A DNA stretch of 64,000 bases from a bacterium (GTDB taxonomy: Bacteria; Patescibacteriota; Minisyncoccia; Minisyncoccales; CG1-02-41-26). The notes under the pieces were generated by a model, which was not told the DNA's origin, did no database searches, and saw only the letters and a list, made by a program, of their open reading frames with translations. The position numbers and the translations under genes are program-made. Below, in pieces: positions 51,387-54,922 of the stretch; the stretch's first letter is position 1, and each line of letters begins with the position of its first letter. The stretch lies in the NCBI GenBank assembly GCA_030648255.1, contig JAUSHZ010000007.1, positions 24,404-88,403 on the forward strand. Direction: 5' to 3'.

Positions 51387-52160
51387 TTAGATAATAAAAA
51401 TTAAAAATATTATAGCTAATATAATTCTATAAACCCCAAAGCCAATAAAGCTATACTTTTGGATAAACTTAATTAAAAATTTGATTGAAAACAAAGCCAC
51501 CACAAAAGAAACTAAAATGCCAACAAGCAACACCCAAACCTGATTGGCAGAAAAGCTGGCTCCTGATTTTAACAAATCATATCCTGTGGCTGCTATCATT
51601 GTTGGCACAGCCAAAAGAAAAGAAAACTCCACAATGGCTTTCCTTGAAATATTGCTTAAAAGCCCCCCCATAATAGTGGCTCCGCTTCTGGAAACCCCAG
51701 GAATCATAGCCAATGATTGAAAACACCCAATTAAAAAGCATTTTTTAAAAGGAATGTTTAATGGCTCGTCAATAAGGTTTTCTTTTTGCTTGGACTTAAA
51801 AAATAATTCAAGCAAAATTAAGGCCACCCCACCCAAAAGCAAAGCCCACAAAACAATTGCTTCGCTATTTAATAAATAACCCTTGATTATCTTATAAAGC
51901 AAAAACCCTAAAATAGCGGTGGGTAAAAAGGCCACAAAAAGCCGCTTTAAAATTTCTTTGTTTAAAAATGCTTTCCAGTACAAAGCCACCACCGACAAAA
52001 TTGCCCCCCCCTGTATGGCGATTTCAAAAGTTTTAGCAAAATCGGTTTGTGAAAGGCCTAAAATTTTATTGGCTAAAATTAAATGCCCAGTGGAAGAAAT
52101 TGGTAAAAATTCAGTTATGCCTTCAACCACCCCCAAAATAATTGTTTGTAAAATATCCAT
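51387..52160 (-). CDS. uppP: Undecaprenyl-diphosphatase
   Basis: GITEFLPISSTGHL over 257 aa with 7-8 TM helices. Confidence 0.85.
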   Translation of the reverse strand: MDILQTIILGVVEGITEFLPISSTGHLILANKILGLSQTDFAKTFEIAIQGGAILSVVALYWKAFLNKEILKRLFVAFLPTAILGFLLYKIIKGYLLNSEAIVLWALLLGGVALILLELFFKSKQKENLIDEPLNIPFKKCFLIGCFQSLAMIPGVSRSGATIMGGLLSNISRKAIVEFSFLLAVPTMIAATGYDLLKSGASFSANQVWVLLVGILVSFVVALFSIKFLIKFIQKYSFIGFGVYRIILAIIFLIFII

Positions 52161-53167
52161 TCGAACATTATAATATAAATATGATTATTGAACAATTAAA
52201 ACAAAGCGGGCTTTTGGGCAGAAGTGGCAGTAATTTTCCTGTTTGGAAAAAATGGGAAGCAGTAAAAAATATTTCTGCGGATAAAAAATTTGTAATATGT
52301 AATGCTTCAGAAGGTGAACCTGAGGTTTTCAAAGACGCATTTATTTTAGAAAATTATTTACCCGAAGTTATTGATGGCGTAAAAATCGCTTTGCAAGAAA
52401 TTGGCGCCTCAACCGCCTATATTTATTTAAATAAAAATTTTTATTTAAAATACAAAAATAAACTTTTACAACTAATAGAAAATTCACCTATTGAGCTTTT
52501 TGAAAAACCATCCGGATATTTAGCGGGAGAAGAAACTGCAATTTTAAGCACTATTGAAGGCAGAAGAGTAGAGCCAAGAATAAAACCACCATTCCCGACG
52601 GAAAAAGGTTTGTGGGGGAAACCCACTTTAATAAATAATGTGGAAACATTTTATTGGGTAAACAAAATCGCCAAGGGAGAATACAGTCATAATCGTTTTT
52701 ACTGCATCAGCGGAGATACTCCAAATCCAGGTGTTTATGAACTGCCAGAAACTTTTACTATTAAACAGACATTGGAGCGAACTACTAACTATCAACTACC
52801 AGCTACTAACTATTTTTATCAAATTGGGGGAGGAGCAGTTGGTGAAATTCTATTAGACACCGAACTAAGCCAACCTATTAAGGGGTTGGCTTCTATTATT
52901 ATTTTTAATAAAGAAAAAGAAAACCCGATTGATTTAATGAAAAATTGGGTTCAATTTTTGATGTTGCAAAACTGCGACCAATGCGCTCCCTGCCGAGAAG
53001 GGCTTTACCGCATAAACGAAATCCTCCAGCAAATTAAAGAAAAACCAACAGAAGAACAGCTTAAAACTTTATCAGACATTTTTGATGTTTTGGAAAAGTC
53101 TTCGCTTTGCCCTTTCGGCCACACTGCCTACCTGCCATTTAAAACAGCAATAGAAAAACTCACTTGA
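52142..53167 (+). CDS. NuoF-like NADH-binding flavoprotein subunit (HydB-like)
   Basis: GRSGSNFPVWKKW, CNASEGEPEVFKD, GEETAILSTIEG and the Fe-S motif CDQCAPCREG. The start may be the internal MIIEQLK at 52181. Confidence 0.7.
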   Translation: MFVKYPFEHYNINMIIEQLKQSGLLGRSGSNFPVWKKWEAVKNISADKKFVICNASEGEPEVFKDAFILENYLPEVIDGVKIALQEIGASTAYIYLNKNFYLKYKNKLLQLIENSPIELFEKPSGYLAGEETAILSTIEGRRVEPRIKPPFPTEKGLWGKPTLINNVETFYWVNKIAKGEYSHNRFYCISGDTPNPGVYELPETFTIKQTLERTTNYQLPATNYFYQIGGGAVGEILLDTELSQPIKGLASIIIFNKEKENPIDLMKNWVQFLMLQNCDQCAPCREGLYRINEILQQIKEKPTEEQLKTLSDIFDVLEKSSLCPFGHTAYLPFKTAIEKLT

Positions 53168-53230
53168 GACCCGACCTCCAAAAATCTGAGCCCCAGTTTT
53201 GGGGAGGTCGGGTCTCGGTCAGCTTTATTT

Positions 53231-54922
53231 ATGATTCAAATAACCATTAACAACAAAAAAATAGAAACCGAAAAAGACAAAACTATTTTAGAAATTGCCA
53301 GAGAAAATAATATTTACATTCCCACTCTTTGCTTTCACTCGGATTTAACTGCCCATGCTTCGTGCCGGCTTTGTTTGGTTAGTATTAAGGGCATTAACAA
53401 CCCCCAAACTGCTTGTTCAACAATAGTTGAAAATGGAATGGAAATTGAAACTGAAAATCCAGAAATTGCTAAATTGCGAAAAACTAACCTTGAACTTTTA
53501 TTCGCCCAGCACAAAGAAGAATGCTCGGACTGCGTTTTATTATATAACTGCCAATTTTTAAAATTAGCCAAAGAACTAAATGCTAACATTTCAAGGTTTT
53601 CTGACCGCAAAAAAGATTTTCCTGCCATAGAGTTTGGTCCTAGCGTAGTTTTTGATTCTTCAAAATGTATTGACTGTCGCAATTGTGTTGAAGTTTGCCA
53701 AAATCAAGCTGTTGGTTATTTAGAAGTGGGAGGGAAAGACAGTTTTTACCAAATAACTCCCTCACCCACCAAATCCTGCATTTATTGTGGCCAATGCATT
53801 GCTCATTGCCCAGTTGGCGCTTTTGAAGCAAAAAGCGAATTTGAACAAATCGAGGAACCTTTAAATAATAAAAATAAGATTCTGGTTTTCCAATTTGCTC
53901 CCTCAATTAGAAGCTCAATTGGGGAAGAGTTTGAAATGCCCCATGGCACCATTGTAACCGAACAATTAGTTGGCGCTATTAAACAGCTTGGGGCTGATTA
54001 TGTTTTTGATGTTTCGGTTGGGGCTGACTTTACCACTTTTGAAGAAGCTAAAGAAATAGTGGAAAAATTTAAGTCAAACAAACCCTCTTTGCTAATGTCC
54101 TCTTGCTGCCCTTCTTGGGTAAGGTTTGTGGAAAAATATTATCCAGAATTTATTCCCAATATTGCAACAGCCAAGCCCCCGCACATAATTTTGGGCGGAT
54201 TGATTAAAACTTATTGGGCCTCTTGCGAAAAAATAAGCCCAAAGAAAATTTTTGTGGTTTCCGTGATGCCCTGTGTGGCTAAAAAATATGAGATCGTCAG
54301 GAAAGAAATGCTTTTTAAATACAACGGCACAAGCTATGCGCCGGTTGATTATGTTTTAACCACCAGAGAGTTAGCTTATTTATTAAAAAAACGGGGCATT
54401 GATTTGGCCAAGGCCAAGCCCCAAAAAGCAGACAACCCATTTGGCGATCCGTCGGGTAGCGGTGTTATTTATGGAGCTTCGGGGGGTGTAATGGAATCAG
54501 CTATTAGAACTGCCTTAAAAATTTTAGGAGCTTACAGCGCTCCGAGTGCTGTAAAATCTATAAGAGGTCAAGAAGGAATAAAAGTTAGCCAAGTAGAAAT
54601 AAATGGAAAAATTTTAAATGTGGCAGCTGTTAATGGCACAGGTAATGCTAAAATTATTTTAGAGCAATTAAGGAAAAACCCAGGCCTATATCAATGCGTT
54701 GAAGTAATGGCTTGTCCGGGTGGATGTATTGGCGGGGGCGGACAGCCCTTGCCCAATGATAAAACAATAAGAACTAAAAGAGCTCAAGCTCTTTACGATA
54801 TTGATGAACAAAAAAAAGTGCGCACCGCCTTTGACAATCCTGATTTACAAAAAGTTTATAAAGAATTTCTAAAAAACGAAAAGATAATAAAACAAATATG
54901 CCATACAAAATACTCACTCTAA
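53231..54922 (+). CDS. hydA: [FeFe]-hydrogenase catalytic subunit
   Basis: N-terminal 2Fe-2S and 2x[4Fe-4S] Cys motifs. H-cluster motifs L1 SSCCPSW, L2 MPCVAKKYE and L3 EVMACPGGCIGGGGQP. Confidence 0.85.
   Translation: MIQITINNKKIETEKDKTILEIARENNIYIPTLCFHSDLTAHASCRLCLVSIKGINNPQTACSTIVENGMEIETENPEIAKLRKTNLELLFAQHKEECSDCVLLYNCQFLKLAKELNANISRFSDRKKDFPAIEFGPSVVFDSSKCIDCRNCVEVCQNQAVGYLEVGGKDSFYQITPSPTKSCIYCGQCIAHCPVGAFEAKSEFEQIEEPLNNKNKILVFQFAPSIRSSIGEEFEMPHGTIVTEQLVGAIKQLGADYVFDVSVGADFTTFEEAKEIVEKFKSNKPSLLMSSCCPSWVRFVEKYYPEFIPNIATAKPPHIILGGLIKTYWASCEKISPKKIFVVSVMPCVAKKYEIVRKEMLFKYNGTSYAPVDYVLTTRELAYLLKKRGIDLAKAKPQKADNPFGDPSGSGVIYGASGGVMESAIRTALKILGAYSAPSAVKSIRGQEGIKVSQVEINGKILNVAAVNGTGNAKIILEQLRKNPGLYQCVEVMACPGGCIGGGGQPLPNDKTIRTKRAQALYDIDEQKKVRTAFDNPDLQKVYKEFLKNEKIIKQICHTKYSL

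Follow-up and report, generated by a model that had tools for sequence, protein, structure and literature searches.

What kind of enzyme is encoded where a [FeFe]-hydrogenase gene stands beside a NuoF-like gene and no NuoE-like gene is to be seen? The question is raised by a 64,000-nucleotide stretch of contig JAUSHZ010000007.1 (GenBank assembly GCA_030648255.1, positions 24,404 to 88,403 of the forward strand), which we call the window throughout. A sequence-only reading of the window had proposed a two-subunit hydrogenase of fermentative or bifurcating type, made up of HydA and a NuoF-like partner, in a putative genome of the candidate phyla radiation (CPR). The CPR assignment is borne out by the nearest relatives of the window's proteins, which come from Paceibacterota, Pacebacteria, Patescibacteria and Minisyncoccales metagenome-assembled genomes (MAGs). 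Pfam scans covered 36 open reading frames (ORFs) of the window, comprising ribosomal, transport, metal-homeostasis and housekeeping genes. Three consecutive genes on the plus strand are our subject: a short NuoF/HydB-like flavoprotein of 328 residues (52181..53167), an M3-type group A [FeFe]-hydrogenase, HydA, of 563 residues (53231..54922), and a six-helix membrane protein of 185 residues that resembles the S component of energy-coupling factor (ECF) transporters (54898..55455). A GenBank MAG holds the same three proteins, MDO8524280-82, on a 108-kb contig. We consider it reasonably probable, from gene and domain content, that the three genes form one operon for a minimal, non-bifurcating, NAD(P)H-linked [FeFe]-hydrogenase.

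HydA (identical to GenBank MDO8524281.1) has the full set of domains expected of such an enzyme's catalytic subunit. Its Pfam matches are Fe_hyd_lg_C (PF02906, the catalytic H-domain; E 7.8e-84), Fer2_4, NADH-G_4Fe-4S_3, two Fer4 and Fe_hyd_SSU, giving a layout of an N-terminal [2Fe-2S] domain (Fer2_4), a His-ligated [4Fe-4S] domain (NADH-G_4Fe-4S_3), two further [4Fe-4S] clusters, the H-domain and a C-terminal small-subunit-like tail. Group A enzymes are recognized by the H-cluster motifs L1 TSCCP.W, L2 MPC..K..E and L3 E.M.C..GC..GGGQP together with the four H-cluster Cys; in HydA these motifs read SSCCPSW, MPCVAKKYE and EVMACPGGCIGGGGQP. Every Cys and His ligand of the four accessory clusters aligns with those of CpI, the Clostridium pasteurianum enzyme, and of HydA1 from Thermoanaerobacter kivui and Acetobacterium woodii. 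Thus the intact H-cluster and the N-terminal ferredoxin-like domains that had been read from the sequence are both confirmed, the former by residue-level alignment with CpI and the HydA of HydABC enzymes. Among 121 sequences, the window HydA and its 120 nearest relatives, the H-cluster ligands and the equivalents of E279, E282, C299 and K358 (CpI numbering) are invariant in 121/121, and the R286 equivalent is Lys or Arg.

Placement of HydA, for which phylogeny had been suggested as a check, gives group A by family models. The protein passes TIGR02512 ('[FeFe] hydrogenase, group A'; 420.2 bits vs a cut-off of 405.95) and scores only 181 bits against the group B1 model TIGR04105, whose cut-off is 450. 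The top-scoring NCBIfam model is 'NADH-dependent [FeFe] hydrogenase, group A6' at 632 bits, yet this lies under that model's own cut-off, and we could trace the name 'group A6' no further than its use in two papers. In the PDB it is the HydA1 subunits from bifurcating HydABC complexes that match best, with 450 and 438 bits, and CpI comes after them with 396 bits. Our trees are rough neighbor-joining trees without support values; in that of HydA, where CpI was imposed as the outgroup, the CPR HydAs form one clade that is sister to the HydABC-type HydAs.

The gene directly upstream of hydA had been read as a NuoF-like flavoprotein with a 4Fe-4S motif, and this too holds: its product matches Complex1_51K (PF01512, 4.2e-31) and NADH_4Fe-4S (PF10589, 1.6e-17) and nothing else in Pfam, and the four Cys of the N3-type cluster are present. 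The coordinate 52142 given for its start does not hold. That position is a TTG at which the ORF mechanically begins, and we rejected it in favor of ATG 52181, which is almost certainly the true start because GenBank (MDO8524280.1) and an independent Logan assembly both use it, because homologs begin at the equivalent residue, and because a promoter-like site, TTGTAA-17-TATAAT (52146..52174, plus strand; found by consensus scan with 10/12 matches, and a consensus match only), stops 6 nucleotides upstream of it. With the -10 hexamer ending so close to the ATG, the nuoF mRNA may be leaderless or near-leaderless. The start of the divergent uppP/BacA gene (52160) lies only 20 nucleotides from the nuoF ATG.

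What remains of NuoF in this protein is the core: a Rossmann-like domain predicted to bind flavin mononucleotide (FMN) and NAD(H), then a domain of SLBB/ubiquitin-like type, and a bundle of four helices that carries the N3-type [4Fe-4S] cluster. The protein aligns only to the cores of Nqo1 (residues 53-414), Thermotoga maritima HydB (TmHydB, 185-544) and the Acetomicrobium mobile NiFe-HydB (7t2r, 155-515); it lacks the N-terminal domain of Nqo1 (residues 1-52), and two of its surface loops are shorter than in these homologs. An AF2 model (pLDDT 91.9) fits the cores of NuoF, HydB and FdsB with TMq 0.86-0.92. The best 120 database relatives are all 311-369 residues long with the same two Pfam domains, and the short NuoFs form one clade in our tree. 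The family-invariant positions include CN.SEGEP (N41, E44, E46), K24, Y113-x-x-GEET, K-PPFP, NNVET and C..C.PCREG...C. Equivalents of Nqo1 K75, N92, E95, E97, Y180, GEET, K202, F205 and NNVET, which we take to be its FMN and NADH contacts, are kept and family-invariant along with the N3 Cys, and on alignment and model the core looks functional. The complex I NuoF equivalog TIGR01959 scores 207 bits, below its cut-off of 558.65, and no other nuo genes are found in the 64-kb window.

At L034 (3981..6434), the gene for a 392-residue NuoF has no NuoE gene next to it; after it come genes for a HAD hydrolase and for a 209-residue Fe-S protein that resembles the N terminus of NuoG and has no H-domain. 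This NuoF is the nearest outgroup of the short-NuoF clade in our tree. A representative search also returned a 702-residue protein (P0387) in which a short NuoF core, with both Complex1_51K and NADH_4Fe-4S, is fused to Oxidored_q6. The small subunit of [NiFe]-hydrogenases and NuoB have the Oxidored_q6 fold, so that [NiFe] enzymes, too, may be served by the NuoE-less NuoF module.

The absence of a NuoE/HydC-like gene from the window, already remarked on in the sequence-only reading, stands up to closer search. Neither jackhmmer, seeded with two bona fide NuoE proteins from related loci, nor the Pfam scans of the 36 ORFs found such an ORF there. Of the 59 canonical NuoF loci that we fetched, 55 have NuoE by the same jackhmmer search, either adjacent or as a fused domain, vs 0 of the ~28 short-NuoF loci including the window, and on this comparison NuoE absence is a trait of the whole short-NuoF family. 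We considered whether NuoE might be hidden in the gaps that separate nuoF from hydA at some loci and rejected this: the inserts are an NYN-domain gene (L016) and UPF0259-like membrane proteins (L027, L028 and L060). The latter mark one sub-clade, in which a gene for a UPF0259-like multi-pass membrane protein lies between the NuoF-like gene and hydA (L027 932..2290, L028 11022..11759, L060 702..1460).

The two-subunit enzyme suggested earlier draws strong support from the company that these genes keep. We gathered 28 distinct short-NuoF loci, the window and 27 others from genome, metagenome and assembly collections, of which 24 have downstream DNA that can be judged. HydA directly follows the short NuoF in 23 of these 24 (the exception is L011), in diverse Patescibacteria and at HydA identities down to ~45-57%, and the stop and start codons of the two genes mostly abut or overlap, an arrangement of translational coupling. 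An exhaustive representative search also returned two natural single-chain fusions, P0383 (885 residues) and P0385 (918 residues), each consisting of a complete short NuoF, a linker of ≤10 residues and a complete HydA, with no NuoE domain. Three contigs carry P0385 in identical form, each time directly after pyruvate kinase, and it is therefore not an assembly artefact. The fusions further imply that the NuoF C terminus and the HydA N terminus can lie within a few residues of each other. Measured against L002, an 83%-identical relative, all three genes of the module are under purifying selection, with ratios of non-synonymous to synonymous substitution (dN/dS) of 0.11 for hydA, 0.18 for nuoF and 0.15 for the third gene. 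The NuoF-HydA pair is a conserved CPR module and not a local accident.

Within the operon, the window shows one peculiarity. The 63-nucleotide spacer between nuoF and hydA contains a strong hairpin with a 15-bp perfect stem (53165..53217, plus strand), seen both as an inverted repeat, GAGACCCGACCTCC, that is unique in the window, and in RNA folding (-37.2 kcal/mol, z -5.1). The hairpin spacer is lineage-specific, whereas in relatives nuoF and hydA abut or overlap. The hairpin may act as an intercistronic processing, stability or attenuation element.

The third gene overlaps the end of hydA by 25 nucleotides. Its product matches PF12822, as do all of the tested members of its family (43/43), and the family, 224 clusters in all, is seemingly CPR-specific. 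At 11 of 15 informative loci the S-component gene lies directly downstream of HydA, and at one more it is 3 kb away. Public annotation has attached various names to the family, 'iron hydrogenase' for some members in GenBank and 'riboflavin transporter' for one at JGI. The nearest fold is that of the riboflavin transporter RibU (5kbw, 3p5n), to which the protein is only 11-15% identical, so that the similarity is one of fold; a sequence-profile search against the PDB gave no match. Judging by this fold comparison, riboflavin or some other flavin, destined for the FMN cofactor, is the most likely cargo of the S component.

The choice between a bifurcating and a non-bifurcating enzyme can be addressed with published criteria for telling bifurcating HydB/BfuB from its non-bifurcating homologs (Losey et al. 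2020, PMC7311640; Schut et al. 2022, PMC9304861). Bifurcating proteins have extra Fe-S domains, with the additional clusters B2-B5, which non-bifurcating ones lack; the window protein has neither the N-terminal [2Fe-2S] nor the two C-terminal [4Fe-4S] clusters of bifurcating HydB, and no IPR017896-type domains. The NuoE-like BfuC subunit, of PF01257/IPR002023 type, accompanies bifurcating enzymes and is absent here, but it does not discriminate, as both characterized non-bifurcating enzymes have it. Four sites in TmHydB numbering complete the comparison. Position 234 is Met in bifurcating proteins, Lys, Ser or Ala in the others, and Lys here; position 367 is Phe, Tyr and Tyr, respectively; positions 427-431 read GGPSG in bifurcating proteins, something else in the non-bifurcating ones, and GGGAVG (the SLBB motif) in the window; and position 232 is Ala or Glu in bifurcating proteins, Thr or Ser in non-bifurcating ones, and Val here. 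Non-bifurcating residues are thus found at 3 of 4 diagnostic positions, and with the extra Fe-S domains and HydC/BfuC missing as well, the bifurcating option left open by the sequence-only reading is unsupported.

Among characterized enzymes, those of Syntrophus aciditrophicus and Syntrophomonas wolfei stand closest. The HydAB enzyme of Syntrophus aciditrophicus (PMC7311640) is likewise encoded by two genes, for an M3-type HydA and a flavin-containing NuoF-like beta subunit; it is NADH-linked, ferredoxin-independent and non-bifurcating, and its beta subunit carries the same signature of Tyr, Lys and no GGPSG. That subunit is larger, at 66 kDa with a predicted [2Fe-2S] and two [4Fe-4S] clusters compared with ~37 kDa and one [4Fe-4S] in the CPR protein, and its cluster set implies that a NuoE-like domain is apparently fused in. 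The CPR module further differs from it in having Ala or Thr at the Ser319 position of HydA and in adding the S-component gene. Hyd1ABC of Syntrophomonas wolfei also makes H2 from NADH without ferredoxin, with a HydB that lacks the additional clusters of bifurcating enzymes, but has a separate NuoE-like HydC that the CPR module does not. Both of these enzymes produce H2 from NADH while the partial pressure of H2 is a few to tens of Pa.

Bifurcating HydABC/BfuABC complexes (T. maritima 7p5h, A. woodii 7q4v/8a5e, T. kivui 8a6t) contain the HydA subunits most similar to CPR HydA, and the short NuoF core superposes on their HydB with TMq 0.89-0.91, but the extra Fe-S domains of HydB, HydC and the Ala/Met/Phe/GGPSG signature are all missing from the CPR module. 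CpI, a monomeric, ferredoxin-dependent group A1 enzyme, has the same M3 architecture and the same cluster ligands, but it has no flavoprotein partner, retains Ser319 and gives a lower score than the HydABC-type HydAs. A related arrangement is that of DPANN archaea (Woesearchaeota), in which trimeric clusters of NuoE, short NuoF and HydA have been described and labeled 'A3, bifurcating' (PMC8421398); two of our loci, L045 and L037, are seemingly of this type. Here a short NuoF of 372-387 residues without extra Fe-S domains also stands beside an M3 HydA, but these clusters keep a 148-residue NuoE gene, ~20-45 additional residues at the NuoF N terminus, and Ser319. By gene and domain content, the CPR module is one reduction step beyond such trimeric clusters.

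We propose the following route for electrons through the two proteins. Hydride from NAD(P)H would be transferred to FMN in the 328-residue NuoF core, and electrons would leave FMN singly for the N3-type [4Fe-4S] of the short NuoF. From there they would cross to the N-terminal NuoG-like [2Fe-2S] of HydA, pass to its His-ligated [4Fe-4S], and continue along the pair of ferredoxin-like [4Fe-4S] clusters to the H-cluster, the proposed site of proton reduction to H2. Such a chain would have no ferredoxin site and therefore no electron bifurcation. NuoE/HydC, with its off-pathway [2Fe-2S], and the N-terminal domain of NuoF would have been lost in the CPR module. The NuoE cluster lies off the main electron path in complex I and HydABC, and its loss thus need not break the wire. 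A fermentative CPR cell could in this way re-oxidize glycolytic NADH by forming H2. H2 formation from NADH would be thermodynamically feasible only with a partner that holds H2 very low, a need that fits a symbiotic or syntrophic CPR lifestyle, and the reaction would be reversible, so that H2-driven NAD+ reduction would also be possible.

Several observations weigh against a working, non-bifurcating NAD(P)H-linked enzyme, and we take them together with the alternatives to which they might lead. A normal bifurcating HydABC of group A3, with HydC and further partners encoded elsewhere in the genome, is suggested by HydA itself, which is closest in sequence to HydA1 of the T. kivui and A. woodii HydABC complexes, and context-based classifiers would call a HydA beside a NuoF-like gene 'A3', as for the trimeric Woesearchaeota enzymes. 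Two further points count against the reading preferred here: Val at Tm-232 is neither a bifurcating nor a non-bifurcating residue, and we know of no structurally characterized NuoF homolog that is not accompanied by a NuoE-like subunit or domain; a solo NuoF would have to be stable without one. We nevertheless regard a bifurcating enzyme as very improbable, given that the NuoF-like protein keeps only the N3-type cluster among the Fe-S domains that define BfuB/HydB, that Lys, Tyr and a sequence other than GGPSG occupy diagnostic sites, and that NuoE is so consistently present at canonical loci and missing from both the short-NuoF loci and the fusions. A different challenge is that HydA might not work as a hydrogenase here at all, its maturases HydE, HydF and HydG lacking and its proton pathway impaired, and might instead be a relic or an NAD(P)H-linked Fe-S electron-transfer or sensing protein. 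The proton pathway does differ. E282, S319, E279 and C299 of CpI have been called strictly conserved proton-transfer residues (PMC6226526), and a CpI S319A mutant retains only 6% of H2-release activity. In the window HydA one of these four residues is replaced, with Ala312 at the Ser319 position, and the equivalents of E279, E282 and C299 are kept. Ala occupies position 319 in 81 of the 121 HydA sequences, Thr does so in 37 and Ser in 2, and in the wider CPR loci Thr is commonest. Nor do the maturases appear. The window contains no radical S-adenosylmethionine (SAM) ORF, its only CxxxCxxC match being in a spurious N-terminal extension of a sigma-factor ORF, and hydE and hydG are therefore absent from these 64 kb; no HydF-like protein is found among the 36 scanned ORFs, and none of the three genes lies within 10 kb of the module in ~26 related loci. 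These flanks sum to ~390 kb, in which only ~1.2 chance sightings of an unlinked maturase gene are expected, so the test is underpowered, the sample is too small for significance, and the absence is uninformative either way. Maturase genes are often unlinked to hydA. A relic or a sensing protein is further opposed by the hydA dN/dS, by the invariance of H-cluster ligands and tested second-sphere residues in all 121 sequences, and by the Thr or Ser that other CPR members have at position 319, and we think it unlikely. As far as these alignments reach, the surroundings of the H-cluster are strictly constrained and the outer proton relay differs. It is also conceivable, if highly improbable in our view, that CPR bacteria bearing the module lack HydE, HydF and HydG and that the S component, in place of riboflavin or besides it, takes up a finished cofactor or a precursor from a host or the environment, which could be the [2Fe] subcluster or one of its building blocks. 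If so, this would be an episymbiont hydrogenase matured with externally supplied parts.

The remaining points concern the nucleotide, the direction of catalysis and the transporter. The glycine-rich loop reads GRSGSNFP in the window, where the family consensus is GRSGSGFP and the canonical sequence GRGGAGFP. The GRSGS variant is shared by L045, a relative in which NuoE is retained, and is therefore older than the loss of NuoE. In addition, Nqo1 D94 is replaced by Ser and F78 by Ala, and the affinity for FMN and NADH could therefore differ, or the substrate could be NADPH. Together with the Val at Tm-232, these deviations in the NAD-binding region lend some weight to the idea that the same enzyme is NADPH-specific, or that it runs the other way and forms NAD(P)H with H2 taken up from a host or neighbor. 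Reversibility is a property of non-bifurcating NAD-linked hydrogenases, H2 formation from NADH needs H2 below ~60 Pa, and nothing that we could read from the proteins fixes the direction of catalysis. On the other side, the general picture of CPR bacteria is one of fermenters with reductant to get rid of, and one of the fusion genes directly follows pyruvate kinase. Uptake or NADPH specificity seems to us possible, if distinctly less probable than NADH-driven H2 formation. As for the transporter, its similarity to RibU is at the level of fold only, and the energizing module (EcfA/A'/T) was not noticed in the window, where the ATP-binding cassette (ABC) genes are of the MacB/FtsX type only. With these reservations, the preferred reading remains a minimal, non-bifurcating NAD(P)H-linked hydrogenase.

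Some neighbors of the module at other loci invited attention as maturase candidates. Radical-SAM ORFs occur near it in L004 (two) and L012, and we rejected them as HydE or HydG because they are SPASM, NrdG-like or generic and have no BATS domain. We noted GTPase genes as well, since HydF is a GTPase and no HydF was found: a YchF-type GTPase gene lies a few kb from the module in two unrelated loci (L008 8644..9711 and L009 15490..16557), and an Obg gene in L006. This proximity is probably a coincidence.

Other features of the window are recorded here in their own right. Beyond the S-component gene lies a tRNA-like gene of 73 nucleotides (55582..55654, plus strand), which ARAGORN calls tRNA-Ser(UGA), yet it has no long variable arm, and its G3:U70 wobble pair and A73 resemble the identity set of tRNA-Ala. 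C31 and C39 are mismatched, position 37 is a pyrimidine and the T-loop reads UGCAAGU; the gene is flanked by its own promoter-like site (55540..55567) and by a hairpin with a T-run (55657..55688). The Rfam tRNA model gives 43 bits when the region is searched alone, whereas the whole-window run missed the gene, and 7 related loci lack it at the equivalent place. Further upstream, a DUF3800-V RNA (48983..49080, plus strand; 41.9 bits vs a gathering score of 37.4 in Rfam) adjoins a DUF3800 protein gene (49116..49784, minus strand), a known association. Genes for handling metals and thiols are densely clustered at 37279..47622 (minus strand), a short way upstream of the hydrogenase region, and their products include a P-type ATPase with an HMA domain, HMA-DsbA-like and DsbD-like proteins, cupredoxin-like domains, an FtrD-like protein, a cation-efflux protein, a cysteine desulfurase and small proteins with Cys-rich C-terminal tails.

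The module is already deposited in public databases under generic annotation, and [FeFe]-hydrogenases in CPR bacteria are not news; Wrighton et al. reportedly noted them in OD1/OP11 genomes as early as 2012. In the full text of the searchable literature we found general mentions of group A [FeFe]-hydrogenases in CPR/Patescibacteria and the trimeric DPANN case, and no description of a NuoE-less NuoF-HydA pair in CPR, of its CPR-wide conservation, of the fusions, of the linked RibU-like gene or of the Ala/Thr-319 variant. If the two proteins work as we infer, they would constitute the smallest NAD(P)H-linked [FeFe]-hydrogenase known, with two subunits, or a single chain in the fusions, and if that is true their small size would make them attractive for engineering NADH-driven H2 production. 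The family would also be a natural NuoE knock-out, a NuoF that does without NuoE and its [2Fe-2S] (N1a-type) cluster. Debate continues over what the N1a-type cluster contributes to complex I and to flavin-based bifurcation, and a NuoE-less enzyme could help to test this. The replacement of a 'strictly conserved' Ser by Ala or Thr under strong purifying selection suggests that the proton pathway may be more plastic than mutagenesis of CpI implies.

CPR bacteria live by scavenging cofactors, and a RibU-like importer linked to an FMN enzyme suits this way of life. Wherever a classifier goes by gene context and labels each HydA beside a NuoF-like gene 'group A3, bifurcating', this whole CPR-wide family would be mislabeled, and models of how H2 and ferredoxin flow through groundwater and anoxic communities would be skewed in turn.

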